DNA from: an uncultured Planctomycetia bacterium
GTDB taxonomy: Bacteria > Omnitrophota > Gorgyraeia > 1-14-0-20-64-10
Direction: 5' to 3'
Length of the DNA: 64,000 nucleotides
Assembly (NCBI GenBank): GCA_964597545.1
Contig: CAZQXN010000008.1
Coordinates: forward strand, 733 to 64,732
Positions 6,083 to 63,081 of this stretch are shown in pieces; within the stretch, counting starts at the first letter, position 1, and every line of letters starts with the position of its first letter. Made by a program: the position numbers and the translations under genes. The notes below the pieces were generated by a model that searched no databases, had not been told where the DNA came from, and worked only from the letters and a program-made list of their open reading frames with translations.

Positions 6083-7518
6083 AATCTGTCATTAAATTTG
6101 GAACCGATGGCTGGCGCGCTTTGGTCGCCGAGGAGTTTACCCTCCCCAATGTGCGGGCGGTTGCTCAAGGGGTAGCCGAATATCTCAAGGCCCACCCGGC
6201 TCGAGGGCGAGCCAAGGCGGTACTGGTGGGTTTTGATACTCGGCCGCTGGGGGATCTCTTTGCCCAGGCCGTCGCAGAGGTCTTGGCCGGCAACGGCATC
6301 CGCGTATTCCTCACCGATACCCCCATGCCGACCCCTGCGATCAGCTCTGCCATTCGTCAGATGAAGCTTTCAGGCGGAATCGTTGTTACCGCCAGCCACA
6401 ATCCCTTTACCTACAACGGGCTCAAGTTCAAGCCCTTCTATGCCGGTCCGGCCGAAGCCACCATGACTCAGTGGATTGAGAAGCGGCTCTTCAGGCGGCC
6501 GGCCCGAATGCTCCCCTTGAAAGTGGGTTTGGCCAAGGGCATGATCAAGCCCATTGATCTGAAGCCCGATTACTTAAAGTTTTTGAGGGGTTATGTCCGG
6601 TGGAATCTGATCAAACAGGCTCGGTTCCGGGTCGCCTATGACTCCATGCATGGCGCAGGCCAACAACTGCTTGAGGAGGTCACCTCCGGCAGCAAGCTTA
6701 AGATTCTTGCTGTGCGCCATCCGGCAGATCGGGTGCCAAGCCAGTTCCGCCCGGAGCCACTCGGTCAACACCTGGATGTCCTCGCCCGCTTTGTTCGTCG
6801 CCAGCGGTGCCATCTGGGTATTGCCAACGATGGCGATGCCGATCGAGCAGGGCTCGTTACCTCTGAGGGCCGTTTTGTGAGCTCCCAGGAGACGATGTCG
6901 CTTCTGTTGTGGCACATCCTGGAGGATTGCGGCTGGCGGGGGCTGGTGGTGACCACCGTTGCCGGGTCCAACATCATGGATGCCATCTGCGAGCATTACG
7001 GTGTTCCCTTGAAGCGCACGCCTGTGGGTTTTAAGTACATCGCGCGCCTCATGCGTTCCAAGCCGGTTCTCTTCGGCGGAGAGGAGTCGGGCGGTTTTGG
7101 TTTTAAGGGTTGCGCACCAGAGCGGGATGGGCTCCTGGCGGGGCTTTTGACCCTTCAGATGATGGTGATGCGCAAGCAGAATCTCTCGAGGATCCTCAAG
7201 ACCATGCGCAGCCGCTTTGGCCAGTGGAGCTATTCTCGGGATGATCTGGTTTTGGCCAGACCCGTCTCACCCCGAGCCCTTTCCCAATGGTCCCGGAAGA
7301 TTCGTCCCGGGCAGAACTTGGGGGCTGGGTCCCCGGTGGCGAGGGTGGACACCCAAGACGGCGCCAAGATCATCCTGAGGGATCGAAGCTGGCTGCTGCT
7401 TCGCCCCTCCGGCACCGAGCCGCTCTTAAGACTCTACGCCGAGGCGACGAGCCCGGCTCAAGTAAAGGCGCTGCTCACTTCAGCCCAGCGTATGGGCAAA
7501 GAAATTCTTCGTTCGTAG
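6079..7518 (+). CDS. phosphomannomutase/phosphoglucomutase family protein
   Basis: FGTDGWRA N-terminus, TASHNP active-site serine loop, GGEESGG; 479 aa. Confidence 0.85.
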   Translation: MKSVIKFGTDGWRALVAEEFTLPNVRAVAQGVAEYLKAHPARGRAKAVLVGFDTRPLGDLFAQAVAEVLAGNGIRVFLTDTPMPTPAISSAIRQMKLSGGIVVTASHNPFTYNGLKFKPFYAGPAEATMTQWIEKRLFRRPARMLPLKVGLAKGMIKPIDLKPDYLKFLRGYVRWNLIKQARFRVAYDSMHGAGQQLLEEVTSGSKLKILAVRHPADRVPSQFRPEPLGQHLDVLARFVRRQRCHLGIANDGDADRAGLVTSEGRFVSSQETMSLLLWHILEDCGWRGLVVTTVAGSNIMDAICEHYGVPLKRTPVGFKYIARLMRSKPVLFGGEESGGFGFKGCAPERDGLLAGLLTLQMMVMRKQNLSRILKTMRSRFGQWSYSRDDLVLARPVSPRALSQWSRKIRPGQNLGAGSPVARVDTQDGAKIILRDRSWLLLRPSGTEPLLRLYAEATSPAQVKALLTSAQRMGKEILRS

Positions 7519-7521
7519 TTG

Positions 7522-9318
7522 ATGCCGAAAAGCTCCCTACAGATCCGGAACCTCTGCATCATTGCGCACATCGACCATGGTAAATCTACCTTGGCCGATC
7601 GGATGCTGCTGCGCACCGATACCATTACCCCTCGAGAATTCCGGGAGCAGCTGCTCGATGACATGGACTTGGAGCGCGAACGCGGTATTACGATCAAGGC
7701 CTCGGCTGTTCGCATGGATTACCAAGCCGCCTCCGGAAAGACCGTGCAGCTCAACCTCATCGATACCCCAGGGCACGTTGATTTCTCTTACGAAGTCGCC
7801 AAATCCCTGCGCGCTTGCGAAGGGGCGCTGTTGGTGGTGGACGCCTCGCAGGGGGTGGAGGCGCAAACCGTGGCCAATTTCTATCAAGCCAGAGACCTGG
7901 GGCTGGCGGTAATTCCGGTCATCAACAAGGTGGATTTAGGCACTGCACAAACCGATCGGGTACGGGAGGAGCTCAAATCCACCCTAGGGATCACCGCAGA
8001 GCCGGTCTTGGTCAGCGCCAAAGAGGGGATCGGAGTCGATACTCTCTTGGAGCGGATTGTCTCCGACATTCCTCCCCCCATGGGTTCTGCCAGCGATCCG
8101 ACTGAGGCCTTGGTTTTTGACTCTTCCTTCGATCCTTACCGAGGGGTGGTGGTGTACGTCAGGCTCTTCAACGGTTCCCTCGAGCCCGGAGAGAAGATCC
8201 TGCTCATGGGGGCCAAAGAGACCTACGAGCTCCAGGAAGTGGGGGTGATGACCCCGAAGGCCAAGCCCCAGGAGCGGCTGGCTTCCGGAGCGGTGGGTTA
8301 TCTGACCTGCAACATCAAAGACCCCCGACTGGTTCATGCCGGGGAGACCGTCACGATCGAGAAGCGTCCGGCACGCAAAGCCTTGCCCGGTTATCGTCCG
8401 GCCCGCTCCCTGGTTTTCTGCGGCATCTATCCGGTCAACCCGGCTGATTTCGATAACCTAAGGGACTGCATTCCGAAGATGCAGCTTTCCGACGCCTCCT
8501 TTGAGGTGCAGCCTGAGAGCTCCAGCTCTTTTGGCATGGGCTATCGGTGCGGTTTCTTAGGGTTACTGCACATGGAGATCATCCAGGAGCGTCTGGAGCG
8601 GGAGTTTGGTTTGAATTTGGTGGCGACCACCCCGAGCGTTGTCTATCAGGTCCTGTTGAGCAGCGGTGAGATCATCGAGGTGGACAATCCCACCCACATG
8701 CCCGATCCGGGTCGGATCGAGCATGTGGAGGAGCCCTTCATTCGGGCTTTCCTGATTCTTCCCAGCTCCAGGGTGGGGGCGGTCATGAAGCTGGCCACTG
8801 ACCGTCGCGGGGTTTACCGCTCCACCGAGTATCTGGGTACAGATCGGGTCATGCTAGTCTATGAGTTCCCTTTGGCTGAAATTCTGGTAGACTTTCATGA
8901 TCGCTTGAAATCCGTTACGCAGGGATACGGCTCGATGGATTATGAGCTCGTCGGCTACCGACCGGCAGAACTGGTCAAGCTGGAGGTGCTTTTAAACAAT
9001 GACCCTTGTGATCCGCTGGCCTCGATTGTCCCCAAAGAGAAGGCCTATGCCAAGGGGAGGGATTTGGTCGGCAAGCTCAAGGCGACCATCCCGCGCCAGC
9101 TCTACGAAGTGGCCATTCAGGCGGCGGTGGGTTCCCGGATCCTGGCTCGAGAGACCGTGCGCCCCGTAGGCAAGCATGTGACCGGCAAATGTTACGGGGG
9201 GGACATTACCCGTAAGCGCAAGCTTTGGGAGAAGCAGAAAGCAGGGAAGAAGCGGATGAAGAATTTTGGCAAGGTTGAGATTCCTCAAGAGGCCTTTATG
9301 GCGATCTTGAAGATATGA
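7522..9318 (+). CDS. lepA: elongation factor 4 (translational GTPase LepA)
   Basis: IRNLCIIAHIDHGKSTLADR G1 motif, DTPGHVDF, conserved LepA C-terminal domain; 599 aa. Confidence 0.95.
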   Translation: MPKSSLQIRNLCIIAHIDHGKSTLADRMLLRTDTITPREFREQLLDDMDLERERGITIKASAVRMDYQAASGKTVQLNLIDTPGHVDFSYEVAKSLRACEGALLVVDASQGVEAQTVANFYQARDLGLAVIPVINKVDLGTAQTDRVREELKSTLGITAEPVLVSAKEGIGVDTLLERIVSDIPPPMGSASDPTEALVFDSSFDPYRGVVVYVRLFNGSLEPGEKILLMGAKETYELQEVGVMTPKAKPQERLASGAVGYLTCNIKDPRLVHAGETVTIEKRPARKALPGYRPARSLVFCGIYPVNPADFDNLRDCIPKMQLSDASFEVQPESSSSFGMGYRCGFLGLLHMEIIQERLEREFGLNLVATTPSVVYQVLLSSGEIIEVDNPTHMPDPGRIEHVEEPFIRAFLILPSSRVGAVMKLATDRRGVYRSTEYLGTDRVMLVYEFPLAEILVDFHDRLKSVTQGYGSMDYELVGYRPAELVKLEVLLNNDPCDPLASIVPKEKAYAKGRDLVGKLKATIPRQLYEVAIQAAVGSRILARETVRPVGKHVTGKCYGGDITRKRKLWEKQKAGKKRMKNFGKVEIPQEAFMAILKI

Positions 9319-9917
9319 CAGGCGACGCCCCCAAAAAATCACTTCTGCGAGAGTATGCAGAGACATTTTTGAGCGCCATTCTCATGGCGCTGGTGGTCCA
9401 GATCTTCTTTGTTCAGGCCTTCAAGATTCCCACCGGTTCCATGCGCCCAACATTCCTGGAGGGGGACCGCATCTTGGTCAACAAGGTGCTCTATGGGATA
9501 AGGATTCCCTTTACTGCGTGGCGCCTGCCGAAGATTCGCGAGCCCGAGCGGGGCGACCTGGTGGTCTTTCGCTCGGTTGACAACAGCCGTCGAGCCTTTA
9601 TCAAGCGGTTGGTGGCGGTCGGAGGGGATGAGGTGGAGATCAGGAACTTCCGCCTCTGGATCAACGGCAAACCCTTGGACGAACCCCCCATCTTCCAGTC
9701 GCTCAACTATTACAACCGGGGGGCTTATGGCCGCCGGGGCAGACCCATGAAGGTTCCCAAGGACCATTACTTCTTCCTGGGAGACAATTCTGCCAGCTCT
9801 CGTGATTCTCGATACTGGGGATTCCTCCCCAAATCGCATCTGATCGGCCGGGCCTTTGTGGTGTATTGGCCCCTCCACCGCGTGCGCCTCCTGCGCAACG
9901 GACCCTCGAGGAAGTAA
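9315..9917 (+). CDS. lepB: signal peptidase I
   Basis: IPTGSMRPTF (catalytic Ser), KRLVAVGGD, GDNSASSRDSRYWG boxes. Confidence 0.9.
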   Translation: MTGDAPKKSLLREYAETFLSAILMALVVQIFFVQAFKIPTGSMRPTFLEGDRILVNKVLYGIRIPFTAWRLPKIREPERGDLVVFRSVDNSRRAFIKRLVAVGGDEVEIRNFRLWINGKPLDEPPIFQSLNYYNRGAYGRRGRPMKVPKDHYFFLGDNSASSRDSRYWGFLPKSHLIGRAFVVYWPLHRVRLLRNGPSRK

Positions 9918-58165: not shown

Positions 58166-58239
58166 GCGCCTGTAGCTCAGATGGATAGAGCACCTCACTC
58201 CTAAGGAGGGTGTCGGCCGTTCGAATCGGCCCAGGCGCG
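58166..58239 (+). tRNA. tRNA-Arg (anticodon CCT), CCA not encoded
   Basis: acceptor GCGCCTG/CAGGCGC, D-arm GCTCAGATGGATAGAGC, anticodon loop CTCCTAA (one A.G mismatch at the base of the anticodon stem), T-arm GGCCGTTCGAATCGGCC. Confidence 0.75.
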
Positions 58240-59679
58240 CTCTTCTTTATCAGGGTCTGTTTGGGACACCAAATCGAAGGGCGAACTGTAGGAAAACAAA
58301 AGGGTTCGGTCATTCAAACGGAAGTTCGAGCCGGCTGATTTCAAAAATTTCCTTAGGGCGGCGGGATTTTCTTGGCCAGCGACGGAACCTGCCTCCGCGC
58401 AAACAGTTAAGAACTCCTTAGCTGGTTCGAGCCACCCACCACCCGTTCTTTCGATCTCGCCAAGCGCCTCCTTCAAATCCTGCTTCTCGCCGAGCAGCTT
58501 GGCCTTCTTACGCTGGTACTCCTCCGGGTCGATCTGGCGGGCGATGTAAAGATCCAGCAGGCGCTCCATCTTCTCGTCGCACGCCTTAAGTTGATCGGCA
58601 ATCCGGCGAGATCGAGAGATTGAGGCGCTGCTGGCTTCCTTGGCCTGGGATTCCCACTGCGCGAGGATTTTCTCCTTTGTTTCAACGCTGATCGCTACCC
58701 TCAAGATGGCCCACTTCACCTGGTCCAGTAGCGCCTCCTCTCGAAGAAACTTCTGAGAACAGGGGCCCTTCTTGCGGGTACAGCGGTAGTAAACCAAGCG
58801 CTTCTTCTGGATCTCGGCGGTGATCATAGAGCCGCACTCAGCGCAGCGCATGAAGCCGACAAAGGTGAACTTCACCCTGCCGCGCTTGTGGGATCTTCGC
58901 TGCTGCGCCAGCACCTGCTGCACCCGATCGAACAGTTTCTTCGAGATAAGAGGGGGGTGGCTGCCTTCATACAGCTCACCCTTGAACAGCATGGTGCCGT
59001 AATAAAAGGGATTCCTTAAGGTGTCTGCGACCGCGCTCTTGTGGACAGGCTTGCCCGTTCTGCCGGTCAGGCCCCAGCGCAGCGCCTCGCGTAAGATCTC
59101 CTGAAGGGAGTATTCGCCTGAGGCGTATACCTCAAAAATCTTCCTGACCAACACCGCCTTCTCCGGATCAGGCGCGACTGTATGGTTCTTGTAGTCGTGC
59201 ACATACCCCATGGGCGCTGCGCACGGCCACTCCCCGCGCCTCAACTTCGCCCGGAAGCCACGCCTGACGTTCTCGGCCAAATTATCCACGTAATACTTCG
59301 ACTGGCCGAAGGCGATGGATAGCATGAACTTGCCCTGGGCGGTGTTGTCGTAGCGATAGGTAGGGAACTTAAGAGCCAGCAGTTTGCCCGTATCCAGCAA
59401 GTAGATGATCCGCCCGCCGTCCACAGAATTACGGGCAAGCCTGTCTGGATGCCATGCCAGCACTCCTTGGGCTTTTCCTTGCTCGATCTGCTCCATCATC
59501 AAATTGAAGACCGGCCGGCCCGGCTCCTTGGCTGTCTTGGCCTCCACAAACTCCTCGACTACAGCCAACCCTTCATGCCGGGCGAGCTGCTTCAGCTCGC
59601 ACAACTGCGACTCGAGCGACAAAACCTGCCGGTCTTCCTCGTCCGTGGATTTCCTGGCGTAAAGAAAGTAAGCTGGCAT
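58201..59679 (-). CDS. large serine recombinase (resolvase/invertase N-terminal domain, recombinase domain, zinc ribbon)
   Basis: MPAYFLYARKSTDEEDRQVLSLESQ (catalytic Ser region), ...WHPDRLARN...; recombinase domain; CAECGS...YYRC zinc ribbon; coiled-coil C-terminus; start placed at ATG 59679 (the ORF-track extends it to 59943); 3' end overlaps tRNA-Arg on the opposite strand. Confidence 0.85.
   Translation of the reverse strand: MPAYFLYARKSTDEEDRQVLSLESQLCELKQLARHEGLAVVEEFVEAKTAKEPGRPVFNLMMEQIEQGKAQGVLAWHPDRLARNSVDGGRIIYLLDTGKLLALKFPTYRYDNTAQGKFMLSIAFGQSKYYVDNLAENVRRGFRAKLRRGEWPCAAPMGYVHDYKNHTVAPDPEKAVLVRKIFEVYASGEYSLQEILREALRWGLTGRTGKPVHKSAVADTLRNPFYYGTMLFKGELYEGSHPPLISKKLFDRVQQVLAQQRRSHKRGRVKFTFVGFMRCAECGSMITAEIQKKRLVYYRCTRKKGPCSQKFLREEALLDQVKWAILRVAISVETKEKILAQWESQAKEASSASISRSRRIADQLKACDEKMERLLDLYIARQIDPEEYQRKKAKLLGEKQDLKEALGEIERTGGGWLEPAKEFLTVCAEAGSVAGQENPAALRKFLKSAGSNFRLNDRTLLFSYSSPFDLVSQTDPDKEERAWADSNGRHPP
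58237..58388. repeat. inverted repeat, left copy (152 bp), overlapping the tRNA-Arg 3' end; encodes the recombinase C-terminus
   Basis: reverse complement of 59720-59906, identical except for a 35-bp indel; read by eye. Confidence 0.8.
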
Positions 59680-59694
59680 GGCATCCCTCCACTG

Positions 59695-59724
59695 TGTCAT
59701 CCCCGCGGAAGCGGGGATCGTTCC
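59695..59724. repeat. half copy of palindromic repeat family B (minus orientation) abutting IR-R
   Basis: reverse complement gaacgatccccgcttccgcggggatgacaca matches the right half of the 18.1/38.2 kb element. Confidence 0.6.
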
Positions 59725-59906
59725 GTCGCTGGCCGAGGATCCAAAGGAGACTGACCGCCGGCAGGCGGGAAGAAAATCCCGCCGCCCTAAGGAAATTTTT
59801 GAAATCAGCCGGCTCGAACTTCCGTTTGAATGACCGAACCCTTTTGTTTTCCTACAGTTCGCCCTTCGATTTGGTGTCCCAAACAGACCCTGATAAAGAA
59901 GAGCGC
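59720..59906. repeat. inverted repeat, right copy (187 bp, contains a 35-bp insertion relative to IR-L)
   Basis: reverse complement equals 58237-58388 apart from the insertion gaggatccaaaggagactgaccgccggcaggcggg. Confidence 0.8.
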
Positions 59907-60466
59907 CGGCTGGCCGACGATGTTCGAACTTATTTTGAAACACTGGCCCCAGGAAAGCAAGACCCGCTTCTGGGCCCCAACAGTCTATAACCCCGCGCCC
60001 TCCTGCCCGCCCCGCCTATTTACCCCTGCCAGGGGCGGGGTCGGGCGCGATGAGGAGTGGCCGCTTGGCCGCGGCCACAGGCCGCCTTAGGCCAGGCGGC
60101 CTCTAACCGCTCCGCCCGACAGCCCTGTACGGGCTGCCGCTGCCTGTCCCTCCGGCGCCCTTGTTTTACCTGTTTCCTTGGGTTCTTACCGCCCCCCGTC
60201 CCTTCAAGGTCGGCGCCGTTAGGCCGTGCCCCGGACGCGCTTGCCGCCGCCCAAGCGCGATCGGGGCACCGCTTTGTTCTCCTGCCACCCACCTTTTCTC
60301 GGGGAGAAAAGGTGGAGTGATGATAAACAGACCCCCTGCTATTGAGCTAGCAACAAGACAAAAAGAAGCGTAGCAAGTATAATGGTATTGAGCAATCACC
60401 CATCGGTTCTCAGTCGAAGCATAGCAGCGCACATCGCCAATATCAGGGAGCAGGACGAAGCAACCA

Positions 60467-61708
60467 ATGTCAGCGACAGATACAACAACATTAAGGAACG
60501 GAAGAACTCAAGCTGCCATATACGCTACCTCTGATTGTCCGACGGATTCCAAGGAGGTAACTCACAGGACACGCCTTGAAGAGCTCAACCTCAACTGGAG
60601 CGAGAAAGATCTTCCAGAGAAGGAGCGCACTAAACATGTTCATAGGTTGCACCCTTATCTCGGGAAGTTTATCCCACAACTTGTGGAGACTTTTCTAAGA
60701 AAGTATTTTTCGCCAGGCCAAACAGTACTTGATCCCTTTGTGGGATCGGGGACAACGGTTGTGCAAGCTAATGAGTTAGGCATAAACTCCATCGGGTACG
60801 ATGTATCTGCATTCAATAGCCTGCTGTGTCGAGCCAAGACAGCAAGATATGATCCCAATAAAGTGCAACAAGAGGTACTCGACATTCTTGAGAAAGTGCG
60901 GGTGGAAACACAAGAAGATGGACAAGAGAATTTATGGAGAAATCCAAGAAACTCAAAGATTCCCAAAACAGACAATGCGTATCTCAAGCAGTGGTTTGCT
61001 CCTCAATCGCTTCGAGAGCTTTTGACATATCGGTCTTTTATTGATCAGGGGGATTATAGATACAAGGATTTGCTCAAGATCATACTTTCCCGCTCTGCTC
61101 GGTCAGCTCGACTTACTACCCATTTTGATTTGGATTTCCCTAGACAACCACAAACGGAGTCCTACTGGTGTTATAAACATTCCAGAGAATGTACCCCCAC
61201 CACACAGGCTTTTGCATTTCTAAGACGCTATAGCTTAGATTCTCTAGAGCGGATCAGAGACTTTGCTGTTCTTCGCACGAACTCCCATGTTTCCATTCGG
61301 CACGCAGATAGTCGGAGGGCTCACTTCCCGCCCATTGATGGTGTAGTTACCAGTCCTCCGTATGTGGGGTTGATCGATTATCACGAGCAACATGCTTATG
61401 CGTACCATCTATTGGGACTAAAAGACAAACGTAGCATGGAGATTGGGCCCGCGGCGAATGGGTCGAGCCAGAAGGCGAAAGATCAGTATCAGAAAGATAT
61501 TGGCGAAGTATTCAGCCATGCCGCCAAAGCTATGCCTTCCGGTGGGCGCATGATTGTTGTGGCAGGCGATCGAGCTAACCTATACGGAGAAATAGCCAAA
61601 CTAGCAAGCGTAGAGATTGAGACCGTTGTTCGGCGACATGTGAACCGGCGAACAGGTCGCCGAGCCAACGAGTTTTACGAATCGGTTTTCATCTGGCGAA
61701 AGAGATGA
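60467..61708 (+). CDS. DNA methyltransferase (N6-adenine/N4-cytosine class, SPPY motif)
   Basis: HPYLGKFIPQLVETFLRKYFSPGQTVLDPFVGSGTT (motif X/I, AdoMet binding) and TSPPYVGLIDY (motif IV); low GC; TATAAT box about 85 bp upstream. Confidence 0.75.
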   Translation: MSATDTTTLRNGRTQAAIYATSDCPTDSKEVTHRTRLEELNLNWSEKDLPEKERTKHVHRLHPYLGKFIPQLVETFLRKYFSPGQTVLDPFVGSGTTVVQANELGINSIGYDVSAFNSLLCRAKTARYDPNKVQQEVLDILEKVRVETQEDGQENLWRNPRNSKIPKTDNAYLKQWFAPQSLRELLTYRSFIDQGDYRYKDLLKIILSRSARSARLTTHFDLDFPRQPQTESYWCYKHSRECTPTTQAFAFLRRYSLDSLERIRDFAVLRTNSHVSIRHADSRRAHFPPIDGVVTSPPYVGLIDYHEQHAYAYHLLGLKDKRSMEIGPAANGSSQKAKDQYQKDIGEVFSHAAKAMPSGGRMIVVAGDRANLYGEIAKLASVEIETVVRRHVNRRTGRRANEFYESVFIWRKR

Positions 61709-63081
61709 AAAGAGCCAAGCCTCAAGAGATAAAATCCGCCATCCAAAGCGTTATCAAGATGTTGATGGATGGAGTTATGGATAAGGTGCTGAACAAAGAT
61801 CCCTTTATTGAAGAGGAGCACCACGCGAAGAAACCGCTCTACGCAGCTCTGGTGCCTGATGAGGTTTTTAAGGGGTCGCATTTTGAAAGAAGGTTCGTAA
61901 CTCCATTTGGACGCGCTTGGGAGGCTCTGGCAATCGTAGTGGCAGAAAAGGCGCTGGGTATTGGGGCTGAGAATCATAGCATCGAGGGCACAGTCAAGTC
62001 AGAACGCTTGAGGCGGATCAGCCAGGTGCTTAACCGGTTAGAACACCCAGAAAGAGGCAGGGAAAGATTCCGGCCTCATTGGACAGAGGAACTCAAATTT
62101 GTTTTAGCGGGTGGCGGCAAGAACATACCTGTAAAGGTCATTTGTGATGTTTATGCTGAGGATAGGACGAACAACAAGAAGTATGCTTTTGAGCTAAAAG
62201 CTCCTCTCCCCAACAGCGACCAGACGAAAGTGAGCAAGGAGAAAATCCTCAAGCTCTATTGCATGGAGCCCAAACAAGTGGATGGAGCGTACTATGCGCT
62301 TCCCTATAACCCATACGGAAAGAAAGAGAACTACAGTTGGAGTTTTCCTGCTCGTTGGTTTGATATGCAGCGCGATGAGGTTGTTCTTATAGGAAACGAG
62401 TTTTGGGACAAAATTGGCGGACCTGGTACATACCAGTCATTTATAGATGCCATCAATGAGATAGGGCCTGAGTATAAGGAGAGAATTTACCGAGAATTCC
62501 TGGGTATTGAGCCACCAGCCGAGAGTGTACAAGCAGGCGTTATTTCATCCGCCGAAGAAATAGGTGCTACAGCCGCTCAAGCGCCGGAACCGGAAATAAA
62601 GATTGTTTCCAGGAAGGAAGCCGAACCTTTCGTGACTCACCTACCTGTTTATTCGCTCGAAGTTGCTGCTGGGGGCTATGGTAGAGCCAAGGAAACTGAA
62701 GAGAGGGGGTGGGTAAGGGTAAATGGCCGGAAGCTGGCCGAGGGTATGTTTGTGGCTCAAGTCATCGGGCATTCAATGGAACCCAAAATTCCCGATAGAA
62801 GTTACTGTCTCTTCAGGTGGCACAAAGGGGGTACAAGGCAAGGACAGATTATCCTAGCTCGGCATAGCGGTTTGGTTGATTCTGAGACTGGAGGTAAATT
62901 TACTGTCAAGAGGTATGAGAGCGAAAAGGTTCATAACTCGGACGACACTTGGCATCATAGCAGGATCGTTCTGAAACCGATTAATCCGTCGTATCGCCCC
63001 ATCGAAGTTACTCCTTCCGAATCCGAGGAAGTGAGCATCATTGCTGAGTTTGTTGGTCTTCTGTATGAAGGGAATGTTTAG
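61705..63081 (+). CDS. fusion protein: PD-(D/E)xK restriction-endonuclease-like N-terminal domain plus LexA-type S24 autopeptidase C-terminal domain
   Basis: N-domain ICDVYAED...YAFELK (D...ExK) and paralogous to the next gene; C-domain has the LexA cleavage-site-like VAAGGY, catalytic Ser in GHSMEP, GQIILAR, catalytic Lys in FTVKRY, and tail IVLKPINPSYRPIEV; ATGA overlap with the methyltransferase. Confidence 0.7.
   Translation: MKRAKPQEIKSAIQSVIKMLMDGVMDKVLNKDPFIEEEHHAKKPLYAALVPDEVFKGSHFERRFVTPFGRAWEALAIVVAEKALGIGAENHSIEGTVKSERLRRISQVLNRLEHPERGRERFRPHWTEELKFVLAGGGKNIPVKVICDVYAEDRTNNKKYAFELKAPLPNSDQTKVSKEKILKLYCMEPKQVDGAYYALPYNPYGKKENYSWSFPARWFDMQRDEVVLIGNEFWDKIGGPGTYQSFIDAINEIGPEYKERIYREFLGIEPPAESVQAGVISSAEEIGATAAQAPEPEIKIVSRKEAEPFVTHLPVYSLEVAAGGYGRAKETEERGWVRVNGRKLAEGMFVAQVIGHSMEPKIPDRSYCLFRWHKGGTRQGQIILARHSGLVDSETGGKFTVKRYESEKVHNSDDTWHHSRIVLKPINPSYRPIEVTPSESEEVSIIAEFVGLLYEGNV

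Follow-up and report, generated by a model that had tools for sequence, protein, structure and literature searches.

How DNA-cutting immunity spares the cell that carries it is a long-standing question, and the risk of self-cleavage peaks after DNA damage, after recombination and on entry into a naive cell. To our knowledge, the answers worked out so far concern only trans-acting proteases (ClpXP and Lon) and a few Type I enzymes. A gene of an uncultured Planctomycetia bacterium (Omnitrophota in the GTDB lineage) raises this question in a form of its own. The window analysed here is a stretch of 64,000 nucleotides (nt) from contig CAZQXN010000008.1 of GenBank assembly GCA_964597545.1 (positions 733 to 64,732, forward strand). 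Its open reading frame (ORF) at 61705..63081 encodes 458 amino acids (aa), in which a Type II restriction endonuclease (REase) is followed, in a continuous frame without frameshift, by a self-cleaving S24 peptidase domain of the LexA type. The question is what such a module does at the end of a nuclease. The same module proves to recur at the C-terminus of immune effectors that target DNA, capping at least seven further effector classes, and the breadth of this distribution is a more important result than the single fusion.

That the ORF holds both domains, as first described in a sequence-only reading of the window, is confirmed, far beyond chance. The Pfam family RE_TdeIII (PF09520) matches aa 10-254 over the whole of its profile (positions 1-242 of 242, 246 bits, E=5.5e-73), and Peptidase_S24 (PF00717) matches aa 314-449 (E=1.3e-11, 44.6 bits vs a cut-off of 23.3). 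The D...ExK pattern noted in the nuclease half corresponds to D148, within CDVYAED, and to E163 and K165, within FELK, all of which are invariant among the aligned relatives. Modelled separately, this half adopts an EcoO109I-like fold according to a fold search, the only approach to give a match; single-sequence and profile HMM searches of PDB sequences returned nothing useful for it. No helix-turn-helix (HTH) family is matched anywhere in the fusion protein, in agreement with the early view that its N-terminal part is not a winged HTH, and it therefore lacks the N-terminal HTH or winged HTH of a LexA or cI repressor.

The peptidase half carries the scissile pair A322|G323 within LEVAAGG, the serine S357 within GHSMEP and the lysine K402 within TVKRY. 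When aligned by BLASTP with Escherichia coli LexA, S357 pairs with S119 and K402 with K156, and 35 residues separate the scissile alanine from the serine in both proteins (A322-S357 and A84-S119); in the LexA sequence used, A84/G85, S119 and K156 lie at the expected indices. In the AlphaFold2 (AF2) model, the predicted local distance difference test score (pLDDT) of this half is mostly 84-95, dropping to ~54 at aa 321-330, directly after the cleavage site, and is low at aa 274-289. A Foldseek search of the PDB with the S24 model returned LexA, cI or UmuD as all of its top 19 matches (probability 1.00, template modelling score up to 0.71); phmmer and profile searches of the PDB sequences found nothing, so that only the fold search matches. 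The nuclease half is poorly modelled in the full-length run, for which the alignment comprised S24 rows and at most five TdeIII rows. Annotation resources see little of this architecture: NCBIfam gives just a weak UmuD-like match, and the sole match in PADLOC-DB v2 is the generic REase_II (E=1.1e-32). The most likely reading is that the gene encodes a functional Type IIP REase of the TdeIII/EcoO109I fold with a LexA/cI-type S24 module acquired at its C-terminus.

The C-terminal 186 aa, searched alone, retrieve 71 relatives of 41-54% identity that are joined to diverse N-terminal partners. They define a clade with clade-specific insertions and a conserved C-terminal extension relative to canonical LexA, and with the signature hLPVYSLxAAAG ... 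GMFVAQVxGxSMEP ... RQGK ... TVKRYxSEK ... NPxaxPI ... VIAEFVxVL. The window's protein, a DNA-targeting effector, carries this signature at its extreme C-terminus. It keeps all 19 columns that are invariant in the clade alignment (A2), from which its module is judged to stop ~5 residues short of the stop codon. When 1.84 billion cluster representatives were searched with a profile of the module, 2,480 matched at E<=1e-3, of which 565 reached E<=1e-30. In 138 of the 150 best representatives, no more than 20 residues follow the module, and in 37 at least 300 residues precede it. Pfam annotation of 53 long representatives names the partners: Type_ISP_C and ResIII (11 each), Eco57I (6), DEAD and MZB (5 each), the SLFN-g3 helicase (4), RE_endonuc and the nSTAND NTPases (3 each), and PLDc_2 and RE_LlaJI (1 each).

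Genomes taken one per species contain at least 573 S24-module loci, spread over many phyla, with a best module identity of 53%. In 80 of these at least 573 loci, clustering together with Pfam and PADLOC annotation of representatives distinguishes seven host classes. The Type I subunit HsdR is the commonest host (23 of the 80), followed by Type III Res-like proteins (14), Druantia DruE (10; PADLOC E=3.8e-118), SLFN-g3 or Nhi/AbiO-like helicases (10), HIT-PLD-helicases (8; PADLOC mREase_IV), Type ISP enzymes (4) and Type IIG or DrmMI-like enzymes (2). In most of the 80, the ORF that contains the module is intact (~800-2,000 aa for the long classes) and stops 0-14 aa past it. The operons are complete, with arrangements such as hsdM-hsdS-...-hsdR::S24, a UvrD/PD-ExK helicase with Mod and Res::S24, or a MazG-like gene with helicase::S24. 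No accessory gene is common to all S24-capped systems, and the neighbours (HsdM/S, Mod, MazG-like) are specific to the host class. The sequence-only reading had treated the window's gene as a single oddity, which holds for the TdeIII fusion, unique so far, and fails for the module, widespread on at least seven other effector classes.

Conservation within the clade extends to the residues of self-cleavage. Serine and lysine are invariant in the 53 long fusions, where the A-A-G site is at least 90% conserved, and among 300 clade members the motif G-x-S-[MI]-x-P is kept in 284 and the lysine motif in 283. Because the dyad is invariant and the A-A-G site conserved in the fusions, the module would appear to be selected for cleavage and not for its fold alone. 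Within the same clade lie repressor-type proteins in which an XRE-HTH domain precedes S24 (P0129, P0146, P0167), consistent with descent of the clade from cI-like modules that respond to activated RecA filaments on single-stranded DNA (RecA*). The phage collection holds no clade member at E<=1e-10, and the plasmid collection gives a single match, on a 1.8-Mb Halomonas replicon, where the unannotated module is out of frame with its helicase.

Several loci and proteins of the clade depart from this layout or add to it. In three loci, a single frameshift splits S24 from an HsdR or SLFN-type helicase host (L003, 7518-8909; L001, 5413-8969; L171 of Halomonas sp. PA16-9, 7007-9477); the S24 frame stays open well into the upstream gene in each, most genome loci are intact, and these splits may reflect errors in sequencing, gene decay or some form of regulation. 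The module is internal in a few long proteins, with 150-200 residues after it (P0197, 1166 aa, module at 809-964; P0218, 1490 aa, module at 1158-1312), and cleavage there would release a C-terminal piece with an extra domain. Three proteins close in size to the window's fusion (P0279, 461 aa; P0288, 462 aa; P0223, 453 aa) join a C-terminal S24 to a ~300-aa N-terminal domain that has no Pfam match, and may be other small nucleases outside Pfam. A subfamily of 265-283 aa shares a ~130-aa N-terminal domain in front of the clade's S24 (P0142, P0147, P0150, P0151, P0159, P0160, P0166, P0172-P0180, P0183, P0185, P0186); PF11236/DUF3037 is recorded for P0183 only, many members are labelled 'SOS-response transcriptional repressor LexA' by JGI, and no HTH family is recorded for them. 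As for neighbours, an HNH_2 endonuclease of ~310 aa (e.g. L022, 601-1533) is the only one to recur across host classes, in 8 of the 80 loci. A Peptidase_M78 protein (IrrE/ImmA-type), of a group of metallopeptidases often tied to DNA-damage responses, lies inside or beside S24-capped operons at L078 (5311-6453) and L002 (13176-14324), the L002 copy being paired with a DUF4411 gene.

The nuclease half leads to a different set of relatives. Among the 120 best full-length homologues of the fusion, 119 are without S24 and carry PF09520 only. They measure 270-322 aa (~277), are 70-79% identical to the REase over its whole length, conserve D148, E163 and K165, and include proteins that carry the NCBI name 'TdeIII family type II restriction endonuclease'; the one record with S24 is the window protein's own, a cluster of one member on one contig. 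The nine stand-alone relatives that were aligned stop at about aa 279 of the fusion (...EPPxDxDxGKL*), which is where its linker starts, and none of the 119 possesses the 179 aa of linker and S24. The two stand-alone TdeIII cassettes examined are plain pairs of a methyltransferase (MTase) gene and then a REase gene, as in Synechocystis sp. PCC 7509 or Microcoleus. This is the gene order of the window, and the MTase of a stand-alone cassette is 69% identical to the window's; these two cassettes lack the second downstream REase that the window has. Because the relatives consist of MTase and REase only and the MTases are 69% identical, this comparison of sequences shows the pair to have been inherited as a unit and S24 to be an add-on, placed end to end behind a complete enzyme. 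A second TdeIII::S24 fusion was found neither among the 120 best full-length homologues, nor among the 150 best S24 representatives, nor in a scan of metagenomes for the junction. In that scan, a query of aa 240-345 was run against 241 million metagenome records (a pattern-limited search), and the matches listed hit the end of the REase or the start of S24, never both. The window's gene is thus the only TdeIII-family case found, and its nearest small-nuclease analogues are the PLD nuclease fusion and the LlaJI REase fusion.

The fused REase has two partners in its cassette. The DNA methyltransferase that the sequence-only reading had placed next to it is borne out as an N6_N4 enzyme with the motifs FVGSGT at aa 91 and SPPY at aa 296, the latter in a form that we take to be typical of N4-cytosine MTases. 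Its stop codon overlaps the start codon of the fusion gene (ATGA), so that the two genes are predicted to be a translationally coupled Type II restriction-modification (R-M) cassette. The third gene encodes a second, apparently intact and distantly related REase without S24, which shares 27% identity with the fused nuclease over 112 aa only. It belongs to a family of ~215-aa stand-alone enzymes, named 'PmeII family' or 'TdeIII family' by different sources, keeps the family-invariant residues D87 and D89 (D-x-D) and Q102-L103-K104 (Q-L-K), and has no match in PADLOC-DB v2. The idea that it is a catalytically dead paralogue, raised by a glutamine in place of the ExK glutamate in the pairwise alignment, was rejected: Q-L-K is invariant across its REase family, and the glutamine is therefore no sign of inactivity. 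Its relatives adjoin their own N6_N4 MTase directly upstream, and these MTases are 53-64% identical to that of the window (64% and 53% for the two paired with PmeII-like REases). In the window, the second REase has no MTase of its own. Judged by these families, the locus combines a single MTase with two REases, each from a family that elsewhere pairs with this MTase family in place of the other. Both REases probably depend on that MTase family, and the suggestion of a three-gene module with a dedicated paralogous partner is not supported.

The reading that we favour, at a probability of roughly 40%, is that the S24 module is a DNA-damage-responsive autoproteolytic switch, acting in cis as both sensor and switch on the REase, and that its direction is off. 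Cleavage at Ala322-Gly323 by Ser357 and Lys402 would be stimulated by DNA damage, signalled most probably by RecA* (the signal for LexA, cI and UmuD), and would part S24 from the nuclease, whose fragment would then end in ...SLEVAA-COOH. By analogy with the N-terminal fragments of LexA and cI, the new -VAA end would be recognised by ClpX (or Lon) and the nuclease fragment removed. The net outcome would be restriction alleviation, in which the restriction subunit destroys itself and the MTase stays. This would serve when the cell's own chromosome is broken or under repair, with unmethylated sites left by recombination or repair, or when the R-M system has newly arrived. Breaks made off target by the enzyme itself might load RecA and feed back on its destruction. 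The argument would extend to module-bearing HsdR, Res, Type ISP, Type IIG, DruE and helicase-nuclease effectors. We infer cleavage, the RecA* trigger, fragment degradation and the off direction alike, and three considerations favour the last. First, in the LexA/cI layout, a functional domain followed by the AG site and then S24, cleavage inactivates the N-terminal part; the N-terminal fragments of LexA and cI are ClpX substrates only after cleavage (PMC10584840). Secondly, removal of the restriction subunit with the MTase spared is an established route against self-restriction: in EcoKI, it is removed in trans by ClpXP (PMC4231737, PMC11109961), and in Pseudomonas aeruginosa by Lon-like proteases (10.1101/2024.10.21.619520). 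Thirdly, classical restriction subunits, which are useful only if constitutively active, make up about half of the hosts.

A number of points weigh against this reading. The nuclease domain remains intact after cleavage, as a REase with a 43-aa tail, so that inactivation would depend wholly on the predicted degron, and the sequence does not constrain the direction of the switch. If the S24-less second REase is active on the same sites, removing the fused enzyme alone would bring no alleviation. Some hosts (DruE, the SLFN helicase and the STAND NTPases) are not methylation-based, and in the STAND proteins the module holds the position of the sensor domain, where an activating role fits at least as well. 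The LexA-like protein IrvR cleaves itself independently of RecA (PMC7101444). The TdeIII::S24 fusion is also a singleton, for which selection on this particular fusion cannot be shown.

The first of these points also opens the way to a switch of the opposite direction, in which S24 keeps the nuclease inactive, for example by blocking dimerisation or DNA binding, and RecA*-stimulated autocleavage frees an active enzyme as a damage-licensed second line of defence or for abortive infection. The cleaved product, a complete REase with a short tail, should be intrinsically active, the second REase could provide constitutive restriction with the fused enzyme as a latent reserve, and the module also sits on effectors outside R-M, including the sensor position of STAND NTPases. 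Activation by S24 cleavage is known from UmuD, which the fold search with the S24 model also returned. A nuclease licensed in this way would add nothing against modified phage if, as is probable, both REases depend on the same MTase family, and an R-M enzyme or an HsdR or Res subunit that stays idle until RecA* appears could not meet incoming DNA, which matters for the roughly half of hosts that are classical restriction subunits. The order of domains is that of LexA and cI, in which cleavage inactivates, and not that of UmuD, and AF2 gave no support for an inhibitory interface in a full-length model whose nuclease half is poor. Release of the nuclease by cleavage was the proposal of the sequence-only reading. 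Nothing in the results shows it, the orthologues being complete stand-alone REases, the layout that of LexA/cI and an idle nuclease a poor first line of defence, and we regard it as unlikely.

Somewhat less probable is the same self-cleaving switch with a RecA-independent trigger, be it pH or stress, a phage protein, or whether the host enzyme is bound to DNA or translocating along it. IrvR provides the example of such LexA-like autocleavage, but all other characterised LexA-like members depend on the coprotease function of RecA (PMC7101444). The divergence of the clade from canonical LexA, with its blank PDB sequence searches, its insertions and its C-terminal extension, would leave room for another signal, and so would the lack of phage-genome members at E<=1e-10, by which it is not simply a phage cI module. 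Every host of the module, however, is a DNA-targeting enzyme whose main hazard is chromosomal damage, and this is the signal that RecA* conveys.

S24 might also act without regulatory cleavage, tethering or pairing nucleases solely through dimerisation or binding to RecA filaments. The C-terminal domains of LexA and cI are dimerisation domains, and many of the hosts (Type IIP, I, III and ISP) are dimeric or cooperating enzymes. A structural role would not maintain an invariant serine and lysine, an A-A-G site conserved at 90% or more in the 53 long fusions and the motifs of ~95% of 300 members, and the stand-alone TdeIII orthologues manage without S24; we consider this quite improbable. Finally, an artefact of misassembly, or a very recent readthrough or insertion without selected function, is suggested by the singleton status of the fusion, the want of a junction-spanning relative among the metagenome matches listed and the other S24 loci split by a frameshift from the host gene (L003, L001, L171), and is very unlikely because the frame is continuous, the 19 of 19 invariant A2 positions are kept, the linker and S24 have the GC content of the cassette and not of the host, and the junction (complete effector, short linker, module, stop) is built as in hundreds of intact fusions.

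The cassette sits on a low-GC genomic island linked to a tRNA-Arg gene (table). The GC content of the flanking chromosome is 0.575, vs 0.471 for the MTase, 0.476 for the REase domain, 0.489 for the linker and S24 and 0.451 for the third gene, so that the low-GC cassette described at the outset is real. The tRNA-Arg gene is likely the integration landmark of the island. The recombinase ORF beside it is probably over-extended as listed, with its real start near 59679 (MPAYFLYARK...). An inverted repeat (IR) flanks the recombinase gene. Its left arm takes in the 3' coding end of the recombinase together with the final 15 nt of tRNA-Arg, so that part of each recurs, inverted, in the right arm; the bracketed recombinase could be an invertible segment or a rearrangement scar at the integration site. 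Between the recombinase and the cassette lie ~520 nt (59944-60466) that are GC-rich (0.627) and without an evident gene, the only ORFs there being 70-90 aa long, overlapping and spread over both strands; this may be an island junction or att region. A scan for promoters gave 5 sites vs 3.8 expected, and neither promoters nor terminators exceed the shuffled expectation.

Features of the restriction cassette and its island, in window coordinates (aa numbers refer to the fusion protein where domains or residues are given)
Feature	Coordinates	Strand	Basis or remarks
tRNA-Arg (CCT)	58166..58240	+	ARAGORN; adjoins the 3' end of the recombinase gene; overlaps the left IR arm
Large serine recombinase	58201..59943	-	Pfam Resolvase + Recombinase + Zn_ribbon_recom
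Inverted repeat (148 nt, 97% complementary), left arm	58226..58373		flanks the recombinase gene
Inverted repeat, right arm	59770..59917		flanks the recombinase gene
Promoter-like site, AAGACA-17-TATAAT (10/12)	60355..60383	+	84 nt before the MTase start; weak
Beta-class N6_N4 DNA MTase, 413 aa	60467..61708	+	Pfam N6_N4_Mtase E=4.1e-17; PADLOC MTase_II E=6.8e-93
REase::S24 fusion gene, 458 aa	61705..63081	+
REase domain, aa 1-279	61705..62541	+	TdeIII-family, EcoO109I-fold PD-(D/E)xK Type II endonuclease, complete
REase catalytic residue D148	62146-62148	+
REase catalytic residue E163	62191-62193	+
REase catalytic residue K165	62197-62199	+
Inter-domain linker, aa 280-295, GVISSAEEIGATAAQA	62542..62589	+	alignment with stand-alone orthologues; low pLDDT
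S24 autopeptidase module, aa 296-458 and stop codon	62590..63081	+
Predicted scissile bond A322|G323	62668-62673	+
Ser357	62773-62775	+
Lys402	62908-62910	+
Second Type II REase, without S24, 217 aa	63138..63791	+	PmeII/EcoO109I-like family (Pfam RE_EcoO109I)

S24 modules on restriction or defence effectors are not described in the full-text literature searched, which most subscription-journal papers lie outside, and the S24 proteins met there are transcription regulators or UmuD-type. PADLOC likewise sees only REase_II and MTase_II at this locus, in keeping with the early remark that the architecture does not come from described defence systems. The S24-capped defence effector is apparently an undescribed architecture, of which the window's gene is the smallest and the only TdeIII-family example. 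In its widest form, to which we give a little less than even odds, the proposal is that the divergent S24 module is a general, portable RecA* sensor acting in cis, repeatedly fused to the C-termini of Type I, II, III, ISP and IIG subunits, DruE, SLFN/PLD helicase-nucleases and STAND NTPases, and wiring the SOS response into the stability or activity of the effector. If this is true, many defence systems would share a hitherto undescribed level of regulation, exerted after translation, that either curbs autoimmunity or licenses activation upon damage. A self-cleaving domain within the restriction subunit would be a simple and portable solution to self-restriction, or else a new way of licensing effectors upon infection; that at least seven unrelated classes of effector bear it, across hundreds of genomes, points to a general principle. 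With a Type IIP REase of 279 aa ahead of the module, the window's protein is the simplest example and a convenient test case.

Set beside known systems, the fusion combines elements that are otherwise found apart, and the interpretation given to it at the outset is partly supported. With LexA, lambda cI and UmuD (MEROPS S24), it has in common the fold, the Ser-Lys dyad, the Ala-Gly scissile bond and the 35-residue spacing from site to serine, and with LexA and cI also the order of functional N-terminal domain, cleavage site and S24. The N-terminal fragment of LexA ends in -VAA, as does the predicted fragment of the fusion. It differs from all three in that the N-terminal partner is a REase instead of a DNA-binding repressor domain or polymerase subunit, and in that its module belongs to a divergent clade missed by PDB sequence searches, with cleavage predicted from sequence. 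The alleviation of Type I enzymes (ClpXP on EcoKI HsdR, Lon/AsrA on P. aeruginosa HsdR) resembles it in the proposed outcome, the post-translational removal of the restriction subunit with the MTase spared, and in that HsdR is also the commonest S24 host. The known mechanism acts in trans, its trigger being how the enzyme translocates on unmodified DNA, and in P. aeruginosa it is recA-independent (10.1101/2024.10.21.619520), whereas in the fusion the trigger would be a peptidase within the restriction subunit itself; no in-cis mechanism of alleviation occurs in the literature searched.

CapH/CapP-type regulators are pairs of a separate metallopeptidase and a repressor that act on transcription. 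The likeness to them is that a protease couples a defence system to a DNA-damage signal, and the difference is that the fusion joins a serine autopeptidase to the effector protein itself. The closest counterparts are the other S24-capped effectors (HsdR, Res, Type ISP, DruE, SLFN-helicase and HIT-PLD-helicase), which share the clade (41-54% identity to the window's module), its signature and the extreme C-terminal position. In them the module caps large ATP-dependent translocases or multi-domain enzymes, whereas in the window it caps a small Type IIP REase.

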